Shown in pieces: positions 1 through 12,571 of a DNA stretch of 64,000 nt. Source of the DNA: Macrostomum lignano (taxonomy: Eukaryota). Numbering within the stretch: the first letter of the stretch is position 1; each line of letters opens with the position of its first letter. The stretch covers positions 1-64,000 of the forward strand of contig NIVC01001082.1 in assembly GCA_002269645.1 (NCBI GenBank). The letters are read 5' to 3'. A model generated the notes under the pieces. That model had not been told where the DNA came from. It ran no database searches and was given only the letters and a program-made list of their open reading frames with translations. The translations under genes and the position numbers were made by a program.

Positions 1-123
1 TCTCAAACATAATAATATTATATTCTTTATTCTCCAACATATTGGGTGTGAGATAATTAATCACATTAGAATCGGTTTTGAACGCAGCTCTCCATTTTTA
101 ATCTAAAAAAAATAACAAAAAAA

Positions 124-288
124 ATGAAAGACATTTATGTTTGTAATAAATGTAATGTGACTATGCACAGAGGGCAAACAGCAAACGGAGATATATATCA
201 TATGTGTTATTCATGTTCTAAAATATATCAATTTGAAAAAACAAAAAAGATTGAAAACTCATATTACTATTTTAAAATACAATTTTAA
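124..288 (+). CDS. Small zinc-ribbon protein (54 aa)
   Basis: Hand translation MKDIYVCNKC...HMCYSCSK... gives two CxxC pairs; shorter than any ORF in the supplied track. Confidence 0.5.
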   Translation: MKDIYVCNKCNVTMHRGQTANGDIYHMCYSCSKIYQFEKTKKIENSYYYFKIQF

Positions 289-821
289 GAAATCTTACAA
301 GAGACATTTCTGATCCAATTTTAATTCCCGGAAATAATGTTTATTTATATAATAACTTTTTCCATTTAAATAAAGGAAAGGGATTAAGTTCGAAAGACTC
401 TGAAAGGATTTTAATTTTAGTTGATATTATTTCAATTTTCTTATTCGAGAGAATACAAAGTTTATAAGGATAGGTAACATACCTAACGAAATGTTTGAAA
501 AAGTCATTGGAATTTTATGTATTGATAAAAATTTAAACCTAGATCAGAAGAGAGTTACCACTTTGGGAAGAATATATAACATATGCATTAGAAAAACTAA
601 ACAACCTGAAGTTCTACCGCACTTCCTGACGCGGGCTTTGTGCCCCAGTAGCAATAGTTTCAGGTTCGTAAATGCCTAATGTTTCTATCGGTGGAGCTTT
701 GGGTTTATCGAGTCTCAACTCTTTTAATTCCATATCGGTAAAAGTTTCAACATCTAAAATTCTATTTCTATCTTTTAAATATTTTTCATATAATCAACCG
801 CGGTTGATAATTCATGAATCG

Positions 822-1250
822 TTATCTCTCCGTCATCCAATATTTTTTGCACATATAAATATAATTGATTTTTATATTGTTTGCAACATCTCTTAAAGAT
901 TTATATTTTTCCTTTCTTTTTTTAAGATATAATTTAATTGCTAAAAGTATTGATAAGTTCCTGATCAATTCAAAACCTGATATTGAGCCAATTGAAATAC
1001 CTAAAAATAATTGAGATAAATTAAGAGTTGGAATAGATTGTAAAATACCTAAAACGATTACACATAACATTGATAAGCTTCCAAATCCAATATTGAAAAA
1101 GTCCATATTTCTTATATGGTTTGAAACTCTTCTTACTTTTTTAGCATATAAATCATAATCATAATTTATTCGATCAACATTACTCAACATCTGACCTTTA
1201 CGTTGGTTGAACCGGTCGCGTTCCCATTTATCTGCTTCAGATACCGACAT
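822..1250 (-). CDS. Hypothetical viral protein with two hydrophobic helices flanked by charged helical segments
   Basis: 142-aa ORF; hydrophobic stretches IGFGSLSMLCVIVLGIL and LFLGISIGSISGF...ILLAIKL. Confidence 0.6.
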   Translation of the reverse strand: MSVSEADKWERDRFNQRKGQMLSNVDRINYDYDLYAKKVRRVSNHIRNMDFFNIGFGSLSMLCVIVLGILQSIPTLNLSQLFLGISIGSISGFELIRNLSILLAIKLYLKKRKEKYKSLRDVANNIKINYIYMCKKYWMTER

Positions 1251-1560
1251 TCTCGTCTATTTTTAATAGCACCAAAATGAATTCCCACGCTCTTTGGGAT
1301 TTGCCCGAGCTTAATAGGTATTGTATTGGAGTGATTCTTTCTTTTTTCTCCCATTTAAATCCTATTTTCCAAAACTCTTGAAGTATAATATGATTTTTTA
1401 ATAACTTAATTAATTCTTGAAGCTTCTTATTATCCTGAACATTTACAGTACTAAATAAAAATTTGGTATGAGATTTGAATGTTTTTATATTTGATTCTTG
1501 TTTAGGAATAGGAATAATAACATTATTTTGCCGCATCGATGGAGTTCTACTAAAAGCCAT
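1237..1560 (-). CDS. Hypothetical viral protein (probable start MAFSRTPS at 1560)
   Basis: 3' part of track ORF 1237..1716; the upstream part overlaps the fiber C-terminus in another frame. Confidence 0.45.
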   Translation of the reverse strand: MAFSRTPSMRQNNVIIPIPKQESNIKTFKSHTKFLFSTVNVQDNKKLQELIKLLKNHIILQEFWKIGFKWEKKERITPIQYLLSSGKSQRAWEFILVLLKIDENVGI

Positions 1561-1591
1561 TTTATATAGAAATATTTTATATATAAATATT

Positions 1592-3633
1592 TTATATTTG
1601 AGTAGGAGGTTTTTCCAAATAAGCAGTAGAGGGAAAAACATAACCAAACGACGTACTACCACATACAACTGCGCCACGAATAAAATGTGCAGCATCCGCT
1701 CCAGTTCGAGCACCAAAACCCATAAGGGTTCCAGATTTATCTAAAGTTCCCCAAGTTCCACTATCATATGTGAAAACGTTCTGCCAATGAGGGTAAAAGA
1801 ATCACCAGCAACATTGTATGACTGTAATCGGTACCAAACCCTTTGATTTAAAATATTAACTTCAAATAAATGCCAATCGCCGTTATCAATATTAGCATAG
1901 GCTACAGTTTGATCCGCATCACTACTAACATCGTTACGAACCGTAGATCCGTCTGATTTTTTATTACTCCAAACAACTCCAAACCTATCATGCCACTCAC
2001 TTGCAAAAACTATCAATCCGGCGTCGGTTGATAATCCAGATCCAAATTCCGATGTTGGACGTTGGTGACAGTATGCATAAAACCAAACCGCATCTGCACC
2101 ATCTCCTGTAGCATTAGCAACTCGGAAAAAGAAAGACGCAGATATATTTTGAAAATGTGTGAAATTGAATTGTAAAGCACCACTTACTCCAGAAGTTTCA
2201 CGAGTAATTCTAGCGCCGTTTTGATAATCGATATAAGAAGCGTCACCAATTAAAGAACCGACTGGATATATATCTCCGGCGGTTGTTGGATTTTGATATC
2301 CAGACCAATTGCAAATTACTGGTTCGAACAAGGCCGCATCAATAGCAGGTATTCCATCCAATTTATTTTTATCGCTTCCAGACATTCTACCATTTGATGT
2401 TGGAGTAGCTAGCTGATCTACGTACGCTCGCGGAACTGCAGAAAGTATTTGAGTTGGCCAATTAAGATCTTGAATTTCAACACGGTGTTCAAATAATTGT
2501 ATTTGACGAACCTCGATAGGTTGTGTACCGGTACCACCAGTTGGGAAGAATACGCTATAATATTTCCAAAAATTAGTCGTTAAATTAGATAGAGCAAATG
2601 ATGTTGCTTGAACTGGTGATCCCGACGTAGTTAATGTTGTCCATGAATCGGTAGCAACATTTTTTGCGCGAACCGACCACCCGAGGGTATCTCAATTGTT
2701 TCACTGCCTGTAATTCTTAATTCAAATATTCTTCTATTATAACCTAAAAATTCAAATTGAATTTCCATATTGGTTGTGGTTCCGGTATTTGGTGACCATT
2801 GTGTCGCAAGGCTTCCATCTCCAACTCGAAAAGCTGTGTTGCCATTTTCAGATGCTGTAAGAACAACATCAGGATTTGAAGTATTTGATGTAAGCGGCGT
2901 GGTAAAAATATCGGCGTCGGTTGCATTAGCTCGCTCATTTACTTGGCCTAGAGTTATCGAGTCTGCGTTATCTGTTCCAAATAATAAATTTGTTAATTTA
3001 AAATTATTCATATTAATATTACCACTACGAGTGGCAACTTGATTATCGACATAGTTCTTATCAACCACTGAATCACTAGTTGTAATTGAAACATTTATAA
3101 TTCGGTTGTTGCTCATATCTAGGTTTCCGGTTGCGGTGGTTTGAACATAACGTGAATCAGAATCAGTTCGAGAATAAGAATCAGTTACATCTCTTTTTAA
3201 ATTTAATCCATTATCAACTTCGGTTTTGGTATAAGAATCGGCTACGTTCCGTTTCAAATTTAATGAATTATCAACTTCGGTTTTGGTATAAGAATCGGCT
3301 GTATTGCGTTTTAAATTTAATGAATTATCAACTCGTTTTGGTATAAGAATCGGCTGTATTGCGTTTTAAATTTAATGAATTATCAACTTCGGTTTTGGTA
3401 TAGGAATCGGCTACGTTCCGTTTCAGATTTAGTGAATCATCTATTTGAGTTTTGGTATAGGAATCTGCAACATTTCTTTTTAAATTTAATTTATTATCAA
3501 TTTCAGTTTTTTTATAACCTTCATCCTCATTAATATATCGATTATCTCCAAATGTAACACTTATTCCACCAGATGTGCCACCACCACCACTACTTGTTGT
3601 TCCGTTCCATGAGGGTGTTCCAGAAAATAACAT
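1592..3633 (-). pseudogene. Fiber/receptor-binding protein: 19-aa repeat shaft, discoidin(F5/8)-like domain, phage-tail-type motif, L-lectin/ConA-like head; about 3 frameshifts
   Basis: Joins ORFs 3328..3633, 2631..3257, 1741..2385 and the gaps between them. Repeats KTEVDNSLNLKRNVADSYT; ATPTSNGRMSGSDKNKLDGI; GDGADAVWFY; C-terminal GFGARTG...PPTQI* in a shifted frame. Confidence 0.75.
3170..3520. repeat. 57-bp coding tandem repeat (~6 units) in the fiber gene
   Basis: Unit approx. ttttaaatttaatgaattatcaacttcggttttggtataagaatcggctgtattgcg. Confidence 0.9.
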
Positions 3634-3657
3634 TTTTTACTGTCTATTTTATAGAGT

Positions 3658-4115
3658 CTAAAATCGCCCTAGATCGTCATCATGCTTTGCATGATATAAA
3701 TACTTCGGGGTTTCCTTCGAGTTATTAATCGAATTTAGTCGATATAAAAAATACAACGCCGCTTGCCCGCAATAACTTTTATCAAAGGTTTGAAATTGTT
3801 CGTGATGATCTCCACATAAACGATTTTTAGTATGATTAAATTTGTCTTTTATTTCCTGTAACGGAGGAAGCGCGTATGAATCAAAAAAATAAACAAGTTT
3901 AGGTTTGAATAAACTGCCGACCAATGAACACCATTTTCTTTTGTTGTTTCAATATTAACAATGAAAGATCCATATTGTGGTAAGTCTTTGATCTCATCTC
4001 GCATAACACATCTGAATGGTTTTATTTTTAACTGCCTCGCCCAATTTGTTAATTCGATATTGCTTGTTGTGTCCGTTCCATATCTTTGTTTAAAATCATC
4101 CCACGTCATGGTCAT
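3658..4115 (-). CDS. Adenain-like cysteine maturation protease (one frameshift near 3905)
   Basis: Catalytic motifs GVHW, YFFDSY and Q..DKSYCG are split between ORFs 3849..4115 and 3658..3924. Confidence 0.85.
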
Positions 4116-4116
4116 T

Positions 4117-4323
4117 TTATGTTCCTGAAAAACTCTTGGTTTTAGTTAGTTTCGTAGGTGTGGGTTTTAACAATTCCTTTCTTATTTTATCAGCTTGTAA
4201 CTGCCTTAATTTTGCTAGTTCTAGTTCGTAATTATCTTCAGCTTTTTTAACTTTTTCTGATTGTTTTTTTATTAAATTATTATTATCGTGCTTTGCACGC
4301 GAACATGTTGTTCGATTACCCAT
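4117..4323 (-). CDS. Small basic coiled-coil protein with a possible N-myristoylation start (MGNRTT)
   Basis: 68-aa ORF that fills the gap between penton and protease. Confidence 0.55.
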   Translation of the reverse strand: MGNRTTCSRAKHDNNNLIKKQSEKVKKAEDNYELELAKLRQLQADKIRKELLKPTPTKLTKTKSFSGT

Positions 4324-4333
4324 TTTTACAGTA

Positions 4334-5115
4334 CTAAACCTGTTTTATACGTAAAATTATTGTTATTGACTGCCCACCAAAACTTATTAATCTATCGCTT
4401 TCATCTACAATCCTAATATAAATTGATTGAACATTATATTGATTTAATGGGTAATATATTGGGGTTTGGGTGCAACAATCATTTTCTCTCCAATTGGAAC
4501 AGCAAGAAATGGGATTGAATAAATAATTCCACGTTGAACCAAAACTCCGTTATCGTCTGTTATATAACCGCCGTTTGAAATGTCGGTTGTTATATTAATT
4601 GTATTGACTCCGCCCTCAATTTTCCACGTATCACCGGTGCTTGATGTGGTAACTATTCGGGAATTAAATCCAAGTATGGTTCTGAGTGAATTTGCAATTG
4701 TGAAATCAACCTGATATCCGGATCCTAGTGATAGTGTGAATCTGCCAGACGGTAAATCAACACCTATAACAATTGCTCCTGCTACCCAATCACCATTAGT
4801 TGTTAATTCTCCTTCTATATAAGCATTCAAATCAGTATAGCTATACGCTCCTGGGTTAACGCTAAATGTTGTCCAATTGGCTCCGGAATCTTTAGAATAT
4901 CTAAATTGATTATTTGTTGCATTAATTAATTGAGGCATGTTGAAAACCGAAAATAGTATTAAACCTATTTGATAACTTAGGCTTTGATCAAGTTGTAATG
5001 GATCGCGCAATTGAATCCGTTGCTCGCTGGTTGTCATTATAAACTGTAATGTTGTACTAAATTTTGAATTAGTTCGATCTACCAATTGTTTTATAGTATT
5101 TAAATTTGTAGTCAT
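4334..5115 (-). CDS. Minor capsid protein (penton), one frameshift near 4450
   Basis: PLQLDQSLSYQIGL..NNQFRY..PGAYSYTDLNAYI; the shifted frame continues IYIRIVDESDRLISFGGQSITIILRIKQV*, typical of a Polinton minor capsid C-terminus. Confidence 0.8.
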
Positions 5116-5152
5116 TTTTATAGTGGGAAATTAATCGGACGAAGTCCGCATG

Positions 5153-5983
5153 CTATGCACGATCGAACGAAGTTCGCGACCCTATGGGGCGATCCTCTTC
5201 TTCCTCATTATCTTCTTTTATCAAATTTGTTAAAATTCTATGTTTCCTTTCTAACCTCGGATTGATATAAATATGTTTGTATTGGCTATCATCCCAAATT
5301 TTTTTACACATACTTTTAAATGGTTTTGCATCCAATCCGGGATTAAATCTAGCGTGAATATTTTGTAGATCATAGTTATCTAAATCAAACATTACACAAC
5401 AGCTAGCATTCTTTTTTATAATCGATTCTAATTCTCTAAAGGATTGAGTAAGATAAAAAGCTCCAATTCCATCTCCTCTACCACTAACAAAAATTTCCTT
5501 TTGTAATTCTTGATCACCGTCATTAATACAATCATCAAAAATAATTAGTGTTTTATCATGTTTTGGAATTTGATCATAGGCTAATCGGGTTGATACTCTA
5601 ACAGTTGGGGCGCGATCGGACGAAGTCCGCGACCCTTCGGGGCGATCGGTGATGTTTTCTGGCTGTTGTGCCATTGTTTTACATAAATCCTCAATGTCTG
5701 CTAGATTAAATCGCGGTTCGTCATCATCCTCATATTGCTCATATGCTCTTAACATTCTAAACAAGACATCTTTTTTTAATTTGTTTTTTAATCCATGTTT
5801 AAGAAATTCATAATATTTTATTCTAGGTTTATTAGTATAAATTATTAAATTATTATAGTCTAACATTCCATCTGTTGTTAATAAATCGTAAACAAAGTGT
5901 GTTTTTCCTTTACCTGATCCTCCGATTACTAAACAAAGAAAAGGATCATTTGGAAATATTTTATTGTGTTTTGCCTTTACCAT
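5153..5983 (-). CDS. A32/FtsK-like genome packaging ATPase
   Basis: Walker A GGSGKGKT, Walker B LIIFDD, then SGRG and LTQS motifs. Confidence 0.93.
   Translation of the reverse strand: MVKAKHNKIFPNDPFLCLVIGGSGKGKTHFVYDLLTTDGMLDYNNLIIYTNKPRIKYYEFLKHGLKNKLKKDVLFRMLRAYEQYEDDDEPRFNLADIEDLCKTMAQQPENITDRPEGSRTSSDRAPTVRVSTRLAYDQIPKHDKTLIIFDDCINDGDQELQKEIFVSGRGDGIGAFYLTQSFRELESIIKKNASCCVMFDLDNYDLQNIHARFNPGLDAKPFKSMCKKIWDDSQYKHIYINPRLERKHRILTNLIKEDNEEEEDRPIGSRTSFDRA
5160..5195. repeat. 36-bp double-hairpin cassette, copy 1
   Basis: cgatcgaacGAAgttcgcgaccctatggggcgatcc; a related single hairpin cggacGAAgtccg lies at 5136-5148. Confidence 0.8.
5613..5648. repeat. 36-bp double-hairpin cassette, copy 2 (inside the ATPase ORF)
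   Basis: cgatcggacGAAgtccgcgacccTTCggggcgatcg. Confidence 0.85.
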
Positions 5984-6034
5984 TTTTAAAGAAATAATTT
6001 AAATAGGTGCGACGGTCGGAGACCTGCACTCATT

Positions 6035-7500
6035 TTACAATGGCGCGTCCCGAACAATCGTGCCATCAGCTTTAGCAATTGACATATATTCCTCTAGAAA
6101 CAATACGTGGGCGTCATGCCTGATTACCGGTTTTATTAATCTCTAACATATAATTAAGTCCAATATTGGCTACGTTTTCTTTCTGTGCCGTTAGATCATA
6201 AACAACCACTGGATGAATGTTTAGAAACTCTGTGGGTGTGTACTGAGGGACGGCATACGCTTCATTTTTGGCATAATCTTGATAATATTTTATAAAATCA
6301 TTAACATTATTATTTGCAATATTTAGATTAAGAGGATCTTTAACCGGATAATATTGATCATCAACCTGCAGGCGGATATTCTGAACATTAAACTCGTTAA
6401 TTGCAGCAACTGCGTTGTCTGTTGCGGTGCTGCTTGTGCTGCTATGTCACCCGATTGAAGCCAATATAAATCCCCATTTGCTCTTTTACTCCTTCTATTT
6501 GTTATCTTAAACCAAACAAAAATATATCTCACCCGACGTTTTGATGTCAGTATTTGCCACTGGAATGAATCCTGATTGTTATTAATGGTTCGCATAAAGT
6601 GTCTACGATTCAAATAAAATATTTCCTGATCATGCGTTAACTGATTATCGATGTGTTTTAAAAGCGGGCTGTTACCTCAATAGTTGGTACGACTAATTGA
6701 ATTGAATCTATACGAACTGCTATATCGGTTGAAATTGAGGTTCCATAAAGTATCCTAGGCTGATATCCACCAGATATTTGCAACTGTATCCCAAATTTTA
6801 ATCCTTTCCATACCCGATTTGGTGAGAAAAACCCAAATAGTGGAAAGATTGAAAAGTCCTGCTCATATGCTGTTGCTGTGGTTAAAACCGCGACTGGGAA
6901 TTTATTCTGACGATCTATAAAACCAGTATTAATATCTTTTGTATTAGTCATAGTGGTTACAACTGGAACTATGTTTGTATTAAGGTAAACAATTAGCGCT
7001 GCAGTATCTGCACCGGCTGCGTTTTGTACATTAGGGAAAACTACTGCTTGCCGTTACCTTTATCCGGCATCCACCCAACATTATCACCAACTTGTTTTGA
7101 TAAATAAGTATAATTTAAATGTTTCAAAACTCCATTAATCTCTGCGGGGTTTGATGATGTCTCAACCTCAGCACCATTAACAGTTAGTTGAGCTTGGGAA
7201 AAACATTTATAAAACCAATCATTTTCATTATTATTCCGGATCGATCTGCGATATCTCCGCCTGCAAGAGCAGTTCCATCATTTCTAGTATACAACCATCT
7301 AACGCGGAAAAACGCATTTTTCATATCCAATATAGTGTTGGTTGCGCCGATGTCAAAAGTTACCGTTCCAGTAGTAAAGTTATTTGAATTATCACTTGTT
7401 GGTAGGGTATAATTTAAATCTTTGCTCTGACCTCATTAATATACTGTCGGTGCTTTTTGAAATGAAATTTATCACTCCACATAGTTTTTGTTTCAGCCAT
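6035..7500 (-). pseudogene. Double-jelly-roll major capsid protein with about 6 single-base frameshifts
   Basis: Reassembled from MAETKTMWSDKF... to ...DQYYPVKDPLNL..YYQDY..EFLNIHPVVVYDLTAQKE...IVRDAPL*; the C-terminus has the YYP/DL-Q-E signature of Polinton MCPs. Confidence 0.85.
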
Positions 7501-7534
7501 TTTTTTAAGTTAAAAAAGTTTTTTATGTTAAAAA

Positions 7535-8200
7535 ATGAGTCAATTTATGGACGTTGATGGAGAGTTAGCGATTTATAAAGAGAAGCAAAGATATTCTGAT
7601 TTTGTTAGAAATTTACAAAAAAGAAAGTTAGGAATACAATTAGCGGGTGAAAGATTTGCTGCTCCTTTTGTTAATCCTATTACTGGGAAAATTAGTGAAC
7701 TAGAAAAAACAGATAAAGATCTTCTGGAAAAAATTGCTAAAAATACGGAGCCAAAAGAGGATGAAATTTTGGATGAGCCGCCTGCTTATGATGTTGATCA
7801 AGCACAATTGAGAATTGCAGAGATTAGACGTGCAGAGCGGGGCGATCGGGAACAATATCCAAGAGTACCAGCTAGTATTGCTGCGACAGATTTAGGTAAT
7901 AATAATTATCGAATTGGTGGAGTTGATAAAAATCGAAATGAACTATATAGAGAATTGGGTGGAGCATATAATATTGTTATGAACCCTAGGGTAAAATTTA
8001 ACCCTGATTTATATACTAGGGATGAATTAATAAGTGCTAGAATTTTTTATGATGAGTTAGGAGGAGCTGTTAAAAATACCAGCTTGTATAAAAGGATTGT
8101 TAATTCTATAAATAACAAACCGGCTGTTGGAGAAGGATTTAAAACTCCTAGAAAACTTGTTTTAGCTGCCGCGAAAGCTGCTGGACATACTGGTGTTTAA
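7535..8200 (+). CDS. Hypothetical Polinton protein (221 aa; possible core protein)
   Basis: Intact ORF divergent from the MCP, with viral codon usage. Confidence 0.7.
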   Translation: MSQFMDVDGELAIYKEKQRYSDFVRNLQKRKLGIQLAGERFAAPFVNPITGKISELEKTDKDLLEKIAKNTEPKEDEILDEPPAYDVDQAQLRIAEIRRAERGDREQYPRVPASIAATDLGNNNYRIGGVDKNRNELYRELGGAYNIVMNPRVKFNPDLYTRDELISARIFYDELGGAVKNTSLYKRIVNSINNKPAVGEGFKTPRKLVLAAAKAAGHTGV

Positions 8201-8227
8201 TTAATTGTTAAATTTATTTTTTATAAA

Positions 8228-8830
8228 ATGGAAACTAATAAGATTTGTACTAAGTGTAAACAAGAAAAACCGATGACAAAAGAATTTTATTTTTGGAGAA
8301 ATGATTCAAAAAAATTTAGAAATGATTGTCGATCTTGTCATAATACCTCATCTGCTATTTGGATAAAAAACAATAAAGATAAATGGAATGAATATAGAAA
8401 AAATAAGTATCACACTGATGATAATTACAAACATATTGTTTTAATTAGAAATAGAATAAATTGGGCGTTGAAAAATTTTAATGACAAGGACTATATCTCA
8501 TATCTTGGTTGCACAAAAGAATTCTTTTTTGATTGGTTAAATTTCACAAGAAATTATTATGTATCAAAAGATTATACTGGAAAGTTAGATATTGATCATT
8601 TCATTCCCGCTTCTTCGTTTAGTTACAAAGATGAAGATCAGATGAAAAAGTCTGAACATTGGACAAATAAAAGATACTTAACTAGCGTAGATAATAACTA
8701 TAAAAAAGTTAAACAACCAACCATTGAAGAGTTTGCAAAACAATTGGTGCTTTCATGTATTTTTAAGGCTATTAAAAATGAGCAACCGAACGAAGTTCGC
8801 GTTCCTTCGGAACGATCAAATAGTGTTTGA
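8228..8830 (+). CDS. HNH (endonuclease VII-like, giant-virus type) endonuclease with N-terminal zinc finger
   Basis: CTKC...CRSC zinc finger; YLGCT; IDHFIPASSF...HWTN..L..DN..K HNH core. Confidence 0.85.
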   Translation: METNKICTKCKQEKPMTKEFYFWRNDSKKFRNDCRSCHNTSSAIWIKNNKDKWNEYRKNKYHTDDNYKHIVLIRNRINWALKNFNDKDYISYLGCTKEFFFDWLNFTRNYYVSKDYTGKLDIDHFIPASSFSYKDEDQMKKSEHWTNKRYLTSVDNNYKKVKQPTIEEFAKQLVLSCIFKAIKNEQPNEVRVPSERSNSV

Positions 8831-10388
8831 AGGAGGATTGTTAGATGTTCAAAAAGGATTAACAAGCTTACCACCAATCTTTACTACTGGTAAATATACA
8901 GGGGAACTACACCTACCATCAATGAACTTCACAGGTTAACCCGTGGCCTGAGTGGTAGAAGCAAAGCTACTGCTAGTCACTATTAGTGGCGATGTCTCCA
9001 AATTGCGTGAAACCCGTCATACAGCTTCAAGTACCACTTCAATTGAGAAATCTTTTGAAGGAACAGAGGTAACTCCTCTTCCCAAAGGTAAAAAGCTTGA
9101 AGACACGGTGGCAATGCGCAGCCAAGCTCCTAAGTATTTTAAATATAAGGAGAAGGTTCAGAGAGCAGACGGAGATGGGCGGTAATTATCGCCGCTTAAG
9201 GTGTGCTCCAGCCTCTTTCGAAAGATTGAGGGTAAACTACCCGGCACTCGCTTAGATTTGAGATTAAATCCTGATGACACCCCAAAAGCCGATTCAATTC
9301 CAATAAATGGGATTGATTGGTTAGCATACTATCACGACTTAGCATATAGAGATGCTGACAAGAACCCGCCCGAGGAAGCATTAAGATTAAAACATGAAGC
9401 CGATCAAAAAATGATTCAAGGATTAGATAACTTGCAGGGATTATCGGTAGGGCAAAGATTAACTAGGTGGATGGTTAAAAAAATTCTACAATCTAAAGTT
9501 AAATTTGGTTTAGGAATTAATTACAACCAACATGGTAATAATTGTGTCGAATGTTTGTTATTAAGTGGTAGTGGGCTAAGTTATGATAAGGCTAAGGTTC
9601 TTCATAAAGAATATCGAAAACCTAAATTTTATAGAAAAATCATGAACTTCAAAAAGAATGAAATTTGGTATGCTGATTTAATGTCGATGCCGAACGAAAG
9701 AGGATATAAATATATCTTAACCATATTAGATGGTTTTACTCGATACGCGTGGGCTGTTCCTTTGAAATCCAAAAAAGGAGAGGATGTTGCTGCTGCTTTT
9801 AGAAGTCTTGGAGAAAAAAGCGAACGTTTGTGTGTTGACGAAGGAAAAGAATTTTACAATCCTCATATGTATAAATTATATCATTTTGAAAAAGGACAAG
9901 AAAGGAAAAAAGACGCGAATGGGGAGTATATTAATAAAATTTATTCTATTTATGGAGAGAGTAAAAACGCATTAATAGAAAGATTTAATAGAACTTTAGG
10001 TAAGAAATTATGGTTTCAGTTTAGTCTTAATGGTAACCAAAAATGGGTAAAAATATTACCAGACGTAGTGAAAGATTATAACAATTCATATCATTCGGCG
10101 ATAAAGATGACTCCTCAACAAGCTTATAACAATCCTGAAAACGTTAAAGTTACTTTTGGAAAATTTGAAAAAAATAAAAAGAAATCTTTTAAGGTTGGTG
10201 ATTCTGTTTATATCTATAAATGGAAAGATAAGTTTGAAAAAGGAAGAAAAGGATATTGGAAGATAAGTGAGAAATTTACTATCAGTAAAGTTTTAAATAC
10301 CAATCCTACAACCTATATAATTGCTGATAAGGACGGTGAAGAAATATTGGGTTCGTTTTATGAGAACCAACTAATATCAGCGAACTAA
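8778..10388 (+). CDS. PLA2 (parvovirus VP1u-like) - DDE/rve integrase fusion, 435 aa after splicing; exon 1 8778-8936, exon 2 9240-10388
   Basis: Exon 1 ends GELHLPSMNFTG and exon 2 starts PGTRL..PINGIDWLAYYHDLAY (Ca loop plus HDxxY). Integrase motifs WYADL, CVDEGKEF, IERFNRTL, YNNSYHS and GSFYENQL follow in the same frame. Confidence 0.9.
8783..8818. repeat. 36-bp double-hairpin cassette, copy 3 (HNH/PLA2 overlap)
   Basis: caaccgaacGAAgttcgcgttccTTCggaacgatca. Confidence 0.8.
8937..9239 (+). ncRNA. Group I self-splicing intron (IC-like architecture with P2, P2.1, P5abc), 303 nt, no ORF, terminal A
   Basis: P AAAUUGCGUGAAA 9000-9012; Q CAAUGCGCA 9112-9120; R GUUCAGAGAGCA 9156-9167; S UAAGGUGUGCUCC 9197-9209. 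P3 GUCUCC/GGAGAU; P7 G(A)GAGCA/UGCUCC; P1 CAGGU/GCCUG with a U.G pair at the splice site. Removal restores NFTG-PGT. Confidence 0.93.
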
Positions 10389-10398
10389 GTTCGAACAA

Positions 10399-10623
10399 TT
10401 ACTTGAGACAACATGGTAGTAAATTTTTTATAACAAACAAAAACAATATTATTACTATAATTGTTACTAATATTATTATTGACATTTGTTCAACTGTTAT
10501 CAAACTTAAATTTTCATTAAGTTCATTAATCGGCACATTTCCGATGTAGGAATAGTTTACCTTCATTTTTTTATATATATTTTTCACAATAAATGTCGTT
10601 TCTGTTATAGAATAATAGTTCAT
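10399..10623 (-). CDS. Small membrane protein (74 aa, C-terminal TM helix ending PCCLK)
   Basis: IIILVTIIVIILFLFVI hydrophobic run. Confidence 0.55.
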   Translation of the reverse strand: MNYYSITETTFIVKNIYKKMKVNYSYIGNVPINELNENLSLITVEQMSIIILVTIIVIILFLFVIKNLLPCCLK

Positions 10624-10639
10624 TTTTTAAATATTTTTT

Positions 10640-10954
10640 TCACATAAAAATTTCACTTTCATTCTCTGAATCACTGGTTTCATATGAACTATTTGTTGAT
10701 TCGGAATCTGTTGATCTAACCTCCCAATCATCCGAATTTAAATAATCTCCAAGTTGAAATATTAACTCACCCTCTTGTTCTAAATCATACATCTCATCTA
10801 GCTCTAATGGATAAAGTTTTAGGTCGTGCTTGTCGTCATATTTTAAATAAACTTCATCAATTATTCCATTCAAAATATGTTGTTTTATTATCTCTGCATT
10901 TTTAGCAACAGTCTCAAAAGTATCACTAACAGAAAAGGTGTAAACTCGGGTCAT
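10640..10954 (-). CDS. Hypothetical acidic viral protein (104 aa)
   Basis: Intact ORF with a Ser/Glu-rich tail. Confidence 0.6.
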   Translation of the reverse strand: MTRVYTFSVSDTFETVAKNAEIIKQHILNGIIDEVYLKYDDKHDLKLYPLELDEMYDLEQEGELIFQLGDYLNSDDWEVRSTDSESTNSSYETSDSENESEIFM

Positions 10955-11011
10955 TTTTAGTATCAGAAAAAGACCCTTCGCGCCTGCGGCGCGGGCAAGG
11001 GGTTATAGAGT

Positions 11012-11279
11012 AGTAGTATAGAAAAAGACGCTTCTAGATCAGACCTTATTTTAATGGCCGTTTGTAAGGTCTTAGGAGGGGGGACGCGAGGGGGGTGTTG
11101 GGGAGTGTTTGGAAGTGTTGGGAAGTGATTTTTATTGTTAGGGGTGATTATGGGTGATTAGATGTGTTAATGGTGTTTAGATGTGTTTTTTTATTTACCC
11201 CCCGTGTCCCCCCTCTAGACCCTTAAAACGGTCATTAAAAAAGTGCTCTGGGTCTAGAAGCGTCTTTTTCTATACTACT
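11012..11279. repeat. Polinton terminal region with an internal inverted copy of the terminus
   Basis: agtagtatagaaaaagacgcttctaga (11012-11038) is the exact reverse complement of 11253-11279, and the match extends imperfectly to about 80 bp. Confidence 0.9.
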
Positions 11280-12571
11280 GAGGCCGACAAGGAGGAGGAG
11301 GATCGAGACGGGTATTTAAGCGCGACCAATGAGAGATGATCTGAGTTCTTATCTGCCCAGCCCTGATTTGTGCAATATTTCACTATATTGAATGCTCTCG
11401 GGTCATGAAGCCGCTCCTTAAATTTTCCTTAAAAGGGTAGAGAGCAGTGGGACAGTAAAGAGTATAGATAGGGTAGGGTGCGATCGAAATTCCTAAAACA
11501 GCAAAAGAGCATATCATAATAAGCCAACGAGGATTTGCAAATGGCACCAACAAATGTGACTGTACACTATTTCGAAAGTCTAAAGTCATAAAGCGAGTCT
11601 TTATTTTCACAGTACACAAAGTTTTAAAACTGATTGATAAAATTTTCATGTAACCTAAGTTTGGTTTGACGCAGGCACACCTCTACTAATCGTATTGTCG
11701 TGCACGTGTCAAACGAAAACTTTCTACACGAAGCATGATTCACTTGGCAATACAAAAAAATAAATTAATTATGTGCAGAGGCCAGAGGCTGAGCTGAGAA
11801 GTGAGAAAGAGTGGCGGATTATATTAATGCCTTATTTTTGTTATAATAAACTGAGTCTGTCGCATGCAAAACGCACTACTTTCAATGGAATAGATAGGGT
11901 GCAAATTGCCCACGGCTAACAAAAATATAATAAATAAATTAATTTTTTGATAACCACTGTTTAAAAGTATTTAAAATGAATAATTTTATTAGCAAAATAT
12001 TACACGAAGACTGTCTAAAACTTATGAGGCGCAATTTTTATTAAATGAAAATTATAATTAGCTAAAATTAAATAAGTAAGAAAACAATAAATAAAATATA
12101 TTGAACATTTAGTATTATCATAATAAAAATAAATTGGCTTGCTTTCGTCGCAAATTATAACGTGTGCAGTGAATTCGGATAAATAATAAACACGATTTAA
12201 ATTAAAAATGTTTTCATTAACGGCTTATATTCTTAAATTTAATTATCTCTTTCTTTTATGCAATATTAATCATATATAGCTTTCTATATTCAATATATAA
12301 ATAGCATGGTATTTGTATTATTCGTTCGTATATTTTATAATTAAAATATTTGCTACATTAGGTACATGTTTGGTAATTGGTATTTGCTAAAATTAAAAAT
12401 ATACCTGTGGTGATTAACAGCATACTAGCAAACTTCATTTTTAAGCTCCAGGATCTGAGATGGTCAATAATATATTACTTGCAATTATTCAATATATTGC
12501 GACAAAAATAAACCAAAACAATACTACTTAACCAACTATTAAGTTATTATAATAAACATTGACCGTTATGA

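Follow-up and report, generated by a model that had tools for sequence, protein, structure and literature searches.

The established case of collaborative homing comes from phage, where the free-standing endonuclease F-CphI acts together with the psbA intron of the cyanophage S-PM2 (PMC6083498, whose available text also defines the DHHRN / Endo VII family of F-CphI). Among viruses of eukaryotes, Bodo saltans virus, a giant virus of a protist with HNH and GIY-YIG nucleases, is described as carrying parental HEG-bearing group I introns as well as ORF-less offspring introns, and trans-homing and competition of related viruses have been proposed for it (PMC5871332, as far as its accessible sections go). 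Collaborative homing has also been hypothesised for Polinton-like viruses (PLVs), in the accessible passages for helicases and replicases (PMC11296320; 10.64898/2026.10.13.758929). RF00028 introns of about 300-380 nt are described for protist PLVs in PMC12220804, whose tables S11-S12 list PLV introns; in the available text of that study they occur only in rhizarian, chlorophyte and cryptophyte elements, upstream of the capsid gene, and no nuclease partner is named. A 2013 review, in the part available, describes nuclear group I introns as confined to rRNA genes of eukaryotic microorganisms (PMC3679873).

The locus described here resembles the S-PM2 system in that a free-standing nuclease gene adjoins an ORF-less group I intron in a conserved gene, with the intron predicted to stop self-cleavage. 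The likely partner is a restriction-family PD-(D/E)xK enzyme, unlike the Endo VII-type F-CphI, and, again unlike S-PM2, intronic and free-standing nuclease states occur in one host genome, the nuclease slot is polymorphic, and two intron types are present that assort independently of the slot. With Bodo saltans virus it shares the setting of a eukaryotic DNA virus with ORF-bearing and ORF-less introns, but the virus here is an integrated Polinton with more than 140 copies in a probable animal genome and with genome-wide avoidance of the predicted site. As in the protist PLVs the intron belongs to RF00028, but here it interrupts a PLA2 gene and has a nuclease beside it.

The window, i.e. the whole stretch of 64,000 nucleotides that was analysed, begins within a Polinton/adintovirus-like element (family 1), the right-hand part of which covers positions 1..11281 and ends in a right terminus reading ...ACTACT. 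The element is low in GC, encodes an A32-like ATPase and an rve integrase, and is 80-97% identical over kilobases to other family-1 copies in the 764 Mb assembly that was searched. The host-side flank carries a nucleotide-sugar transporter, a C-type lectin and a reverse transcriptase, and the host is probably an animal. ORFs from the polymerase region, whose sole domain match is Endonuclease_7, are presumably pPolB, judging by their motifs. Other markers of Polintons and alpha adintoviruses that were found are integrase, ATPase and PLA2, the last being an alpha marker for adintoviruses in the available text of PMC8502044, and a DJR match was obtained with the family-2 capsid. The capsid gene of the window (6000-7480, minus strand) is in pieces, through either decay or an assembly error, and a 490-aa ORF lies at the matching place in L205.

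A conserved ORF of 221 aa (7535..8200, plus strand; no Pfam match) forms the left flank of the nuclease slot. It is followed by a leader motif, TTAAATTT..AAAATG (8208..8230, plus strand), which is common to the HNH, the free-standing Eco47II-like and the intronic Eco47II-like genes and may serve as a promoter. The slot itself is occupied in the window by a zinc-finger/HNH endonuclease gene (8228..8830, plus strand; 200 aa, open), one of three alternative occupants. Inside this ORF, at 8778, lies the ATG of a PLA2-integrase gene. Its exon 1 (8778..8936, plus strand) ends N-F-T-G, with the GGT supplying the first three bases of a split GGNCC, and exon 2 (9240..10388, plus strand) begins P-G-T, with the CC that completes GGNCC in intron-less copies, and holds the PLA2 remainder fused to the rve integrase. 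ORFs and coordinates confirm the anatomy given by the first-pass annotation, namely an intact HNH gene that overlaps the PLA2 start and ends 106 nt before the intron site, counted to the end of exon 1. In family 2 an intact PLA2 gene has matches to Phospholip_A2_4 and rve. Purifying selection on exon 2 is strong (dN/dS 0.06, first 150 codons), which suggests, without being proof of splicing, that the PLA2 gene is expressed.

The intron, referred to as type A (8937..9239, plus strand; 303 nt), matches RF00028 with 57.8 bits (gathering score 50) and showed no ORF of its own in an open reading frame scan, in line with the earlier description of an intron without an endonuclease. Its limits follow from three natural intron-less copies that join the exon-1 end straight to the exon-2 start; the 3′ end at G9230 indicated by Rfam was rejected, since the same copies put the join at 9239/9240. 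Helices were read from the sequence and the Rfam alignment (P1 8932-8950; P7 9161-9167 with 9204-9209; P9.0 9210-9211 with 9237-9238). The P1 hairpin holds the terminal U of exon 1 in the U-G pair of the 5′ splice site. The P7 strands pair in 109 of 111 type A copies (110 if a G-U pair is counted), and between families 1 and 2 the P7 letters differ yet the pairing is kept by compensation. The last intron base in the window is A9239 instead of G. Across family-1 type A introns it is A in 85 and G in 30 (n=115), with near-identical copies being polymorphic, and G in all 28 family-2 introns with a readable 3′ end; in the family-1 type A introns terminal A follows only CT (intact P9.0), and terminal G also follows CA, AT and CG. 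A terminal A for G is shared with the hexacoral mitochondrial ND5-717 intron, which is spliced accurately in vivo according to the accessible text of PMC6545197; unlike in the coral intron, the ends here are polymorphic, the G-binding pair is intact and splicing is a prediction. Contigs of six runs, none on record as RNA, gave intron-exon ends and no exon-exon bridge when compared with the window and the intron-less locus L098; since contigs can show presence but not absence, this is no evidence for or against splicing.

A second group I intron, type B, occupies the same site at L036:2210-2537 and in 23 other family-1 loci. It is mostly 324-328 nt long and scores 34.2 bits against RF00028, below gathering. 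The core differs from that of type A and P2 and the P5 extension are common to both, as if peripheral domains had been swapped between the two types. There are two choices for its 3′ splice site, one leading to a stop codon and the other to one added codon.

Family-1 copies were gathered by an intron search (40 of 173 candidates scored), an HNH search (131/131) and exon searches (150 of 506 and 150 of 241), which gave 160 loci, or 148 distinct ones after removal of 12 duplicates. The slot upstream of PLA2 holds HNH in 106 of these, an unrelated Eco47II-like ORF of 167 aa in 37 and an acidic ORF in 2, with 3 unread. The acidic ORF, in L089 and L134, is about 155 aa long. Intron state was read in 144 loci, of which 117 carry type A (slot: HNH 83, Eco47II-like 30, acidic ORF 1, unread 3), 24 type B (HNH 16, Eco47II-like 7, acidic ORF 1) and 3 no intron (all HNH); it was unread in a further 4 HNH loci. 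Slot type shows no association with intron type (Fisher p = 0.80), and a nuclease without an intron is found in 3 of 102 HNH loci vs none of 37 Eco47II-like loci, which is no difference (p = 0.56; intron-less copies are few). The first-pass annotation had expected HNH and intron to occur together and had named independent distribution as the outcome that would speak against it. With 37 intron copies accompanied by another nuclease and HNH in every intron-less copy, independence is largely what we see, though three copies are few, and HNH and intron therefore do not appear to travel as a unit.

The 167-aa alternative occupant is an Eco47II-like PD-(D/E)xK nuclease. It matches PF09553 with 26.2 bits (cut-off 25.9; Atlas 0.94), its PD-(D/E)xK residues D65, E76 and K78 are invariant in 20 rows, and its structure model (pLDDT 90.5) aligns with EcoO109I (TMq 0.66) and weakly with AvaII. 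With E 8e-4 and rmsd 6.4 this structural resemblance is modest, and DdmD is the top match. The sites of EcoO109I and AvaII are subsets of GGNCC, and with the shared family match, motif and EcoO109I-like fold a GGNCC-type site is predicted for the Polinton protein; Eco47II homologs are assigned GGNCC in the available text of PMC10305163. The gene is under purifying selection (dN/dS 0.23).

In a second Polinton family the Eco47II-like gene is found inside the intron: in 29 family-2 loci an 880-nt version at the same PLA2 site contains the ORF, which is 60-66% identical to the free-standing gene of family 1. Another 19 family-2 loci are intron-less, and no Eco47II-like gene was found within the 2.5-5 kb examined around them. 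Intron-plus and intron-less forms are 98% identical over 6.5 kb, as expected for a pattern of recent homing. The tails of 9 of 20 database Eco47II-like homologs match the translated intron core, so that intronic forms probably exist elsewhere. In a midpoint-rooted tree of 36 rows the free-standing group and the intronic group are sisters (96/86), nested together with tailed homologs in one clade (92/81), and all of these stand apart from the restriction-system enzymes (100/100). This topology hints that the free-standing gene left an intron, a direction opposite to the pathway of Bonocora and Shub as cited in the available part of PMC11296320. A C5 methylase lies next to the nearest non-Polinton relatives in all 15 loci that were scanned for it (21 fetched). 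Unlike Eco47II, EcoO109I and AvaII, the Polinton gene lies in or beside a group I intron and comes without a methylase in the element ORFs scanned: no DNA_methylase match was obtained among 28 proteins (13 from the window and 15 element ORFs). No close Polinton relative carrying the cassette turned up in scans of viral and metagenome contigs, which yielded distant HNHs, restriction systems, chance pattern matches and giant-virus introns.

A Gly-Pro codon pair necessarily reads GGNCC. The intron splits GGT|CC between the Gly and the Pro of a PLA2 loop, and GGNCC is otherwise avoided by these elements. Within positions 1-11000 of the window element it occurs 0 times vs 9.2 +/- 3.4 or 4.0 expected under two models; in 7 of 7 family-1 elements none of the other words in a set of 256 gapped ones has so low an observed/expected ratio, and the same holds for one family-2 element (0 vs 8.5 expected), these counts coming from related copies that represent about two independent lineages. 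The single GGNCC in 16 kb of the intron-less element C3967 is the PLA2 junction, and so are 3 of the 4 GGNCC found in 259 kb from 137 family-1 loci, the set that remained for site counts and linkage after 11 incomplete or garbled loci had been set aside. Protein sequences show the same: Gly-Pro in the long ORFs of five elements was counted 0, 1, 0, 0 and 1 times vs 3.8, 8.0, 5.9, 6.1 and 4.4 expected, occurring only at the PLA2 junction, vs 18 in host ORFs (17.1 expected). Host DNA is rich in GGNCC (45 vs 37.6 expected). CANTG, CCNGG and CTNAG are also down in family 1, at about 0.3-0.7 of expectation; the family-2 stretches that were tested do not show this, which hints that the family-1 lineage met other nucleases in its past. 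Among 21 loci of distant relatives GGNCC is strongly depleted beside one distinct relative (L213 = L226), most loci have too few expected sites, and there is no consistent signal; L206 lacks CCNGG rather than GGNCC.

In intron-less family-2 copies the junction reads GGC|CC in 17 of 19 (L161-L178), lacking the U that the 5′ splice site requires, and intron-plus copies have GGT together with other linked exon bases. The junction site is absent from two copies, L262 and L263. A second GGNCC located 730 nt upstream in intron-less family-2 copies was considered as a within-family contrast and set aside, since the flanking DNA there is not common to other copies.

Taken as a whole the system works like collaborative homing, and in this respect the first-pass annotation was right: an immunity-like intron sits beside a slot for free-standing nucleases, and relatives of the HNH occur in giant-virus introns. 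The partner it named, the HNH, is probably the wrong one. The pair of HNH and intron lacks two features of such a system, in that an unsplit target coexists with intact HNH and there is no joint inheritance, and the Eco47II-like nuclease is tied to the site by position, family and site avoidance. For the latter pair, the gene is absent from all 19 intron-less family-2 loci within the DNA examined and from the few (3) intron-less family-1 copies, and the intron removes the predicted site. We thus consider it rather probable, on the strength of these comparisons, that the intron, which splits the sole GGNCC of the element, shields it from the Eco47II-like nuclease, and that the HNH is a rival selfish nuclease of the slot with another target. 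On the best reading, a GGNCC cutter without a methylase would serve as the homing and exclusion enzyme of the intron and would act specifically within the virus because every other site there has been purged. That a restriction enzyme thereby turned into a homing endonuclease without gaining specificity is conceivable, if a little doubtful.

The following course of events may be proposed. The Eco47II-like nuclease would stem from a viral restriction-modification system and would have arrived without its methylase. The elements have lost every GGNCC that could be lost, Gly-Pro included, save the Gly-Pro of the PLA2 loop, presumably under attack by this enzyme, and a group I intron is placed exactly inside that remaining site. 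Relatives being free of GGNCC, a five-base cutter would have a single target among them, the intron-less PLA2 allele, which would be destroyed or else converted by repair from an intron copy. The nuclease is encoded within the intron in family 2 and is free-standing in family 1, where it would act for either of the two intron types, in cis or in trans. HNH variants would displace the Eco47II-like gene from the slot by homing of their own or by recombination, and the intron would be retained in such copies because nuclease-bearing relatives live in the same host. What counts against this reading is the GGNCC-rich host, since an enzyme that really cuts at any such five-base site would be expected to harm the host nucleus, unless it is confined or lytic. 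The relatedness of the copies, the partial depletion of other palindromes, the inconsistent GGNCC signal in distant relatives and the modest structural match also weigh against it.

It could instead be that the target of the HNH is the unsplit PLA2 junction and that nuclease and intron spread jointly in the manner of F-CphI, the HNH perhaps having taken over from the Eco47II-like gene as a further enzyme acting there; we regard this as unlikely. The HNH protein retains the CxxC..CxxC and D-H..N..N..K residues in common with viral relatives (D123 invariant in a 16-row alignment; H124, N147, N156 and K159 nearly so) and matches phrog_1035 (E 3.4e-8). A Pfam search of the window protein gave no HNH match, and a single-sequence search found no homologs where a profile search gave 54; the range of the family is a lower bound. 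The structure model (pLDDT 54.5, below 50 over residues 116-200) is too poor for fold comparison, and there is no PDB sequence match. The Endo VII catalytic motif has its own cysteines; the window HNH does not contain its DHDH..RGLLCxxCN stretch, present in the PF02945-bearing P0056, and has no PF02945 match. Relatives at 25-32% identity were found in 9 of 139 viral loci. Seven of them were mapped, three within an intron of a giant-virus gene (L357, L294, L319) and four directly upstream of the same gene (L321, L331, L297, L304), which we take from its motifs to be the major capsid gene. This places the window HNH in a homing-type family and speaks for a role in spreading the intron, as do the slot and leader motif shared with the Eco47II-like gene, the presence of the intron in 99 of 102 HNH copies, and the linkage between slot and exon 1, which peaks at -20 to -12 (phi 0.43-0.47).

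The intron-less copies argue the other way, as all three have HNH and in two (L098, L109) it is intact as an ORF. Their HNH variants (68-88% identical) and junction flanks differ from those of the window, however, and the common exon-1 haplotype of the window is seen in no intron-less copy, which leaves some room for cleavage of the junction by the HNH. The exact unsplit junction that had been named as the target did not hold up: a degenerate N-F-T-G-P-G-T pattern has 0 matches in the genome, the natural intron-less copies having other flanking codons. Besides the independence of intron type from slot, tight linkage of intron B is confined to exon bases -6 to +21, and no family-2 locus examined has an HNH match. 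HNH copies are mosaic in their N-terminal regions, which are weakly constrained (dN/dS 0.52, vs 0.34 for the catalytic part and 0.48 overall), and every subtype is found with several junction haplotypes. Linkage of flanking variants with slot type across family-1 loci did not bring out a clear HNH target.

The Eco47II-like protein might also be a homing endonuclease of the ordinary sort, recognising a long site of which GGNCC is only a part, the avoidance being driven by an outside enzyme such as the restriction system of a co-infecting giant virus. Host toxicity would then cease to be a problem, giant-virus and other viral contigs commonly hold Eco47II-like systems complete with methylases, and other palindromes are depleted too. 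We nevertheless find this improbable, in view of a protein of about 167 aa that is a bare nuclease core in the model, shorter than its restriction-system relatives (183-238 aa) and with no visible extra DNA-binding domain. Furthermore, the sole word that is fully missing agrees with the site assigned to the Eco47II family, and it is missing from two divergent Polinton families that carry the gene.

That the slot nuclease is kept for the virus's own use (host DNA breakdown, packaging or defence), with HNH and Eco47II-like genes interchangeable and the intron a fixed passenger, is very unlikely: one of the two nucleases is present in nearly all copies, both are under purifying selection, and packaging or restriction roles are proposed for PLV HNH in the available text of PMC12220804, but intron-less family-2 elements have neither gene near PLA2, two family-1 copies have the unrelated acidic ORF instead, and the position of the intron on the sole GGNCC is left unexplained.

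If the intron does protect the junction from the Eco47II-like nuclease, it would be an immunity element, which would suggest that, apart from methylation and the simple loss of sites, there is a third strategy for coexisting with a restriction enzyme. Conversion between copies driven by such a nuclease, if true, would argue for continuing co-infection and recombination of these Polintons as viruses. One site is represented here by dozens of near-identical copies in a single genome, with the nuclease intronic, free-standing or absent, which offers a direct and inexpensive test of endonuclease gain and loss by mobile introns. The introns lie in a protein gene of an integrated virus in a probable animal genome, in contrast to the restriction to rRNA genes stated in the available part of PMC3679873. 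In the open-licence PMC and bioRxiv literature (articles without their supplements) we found no report of an Eco47II-like intron nuclease, of an intron that protects a restriction site or of animal Polintons with group I introns.

Two further observations concern the elements themselves. The Endonuclease_7 domain lies within the polymerase-region ORF of L196:1445-3754 and L198:1832-4426, and the nematode pPolB2 is likewise described with an HNH insert (10.1101/2023.08.22.554363, in the text available). Inserts of 28-30 nt that form double hairpins were found in ORFs and intron loops (L045:2327, L177:954, L032:2060-2119, L203:37, L265:9936 and, in the window, 4287-4314 and 8787..8814, the latter of 28 nt and situated in the overlap of HNH and PLA2). 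These inserts resemble the double-hairpin elements of fungal mitochondria. They number 2 in the 11.3 kb of the window element vs 0 in 52.7 kb of host DNA.
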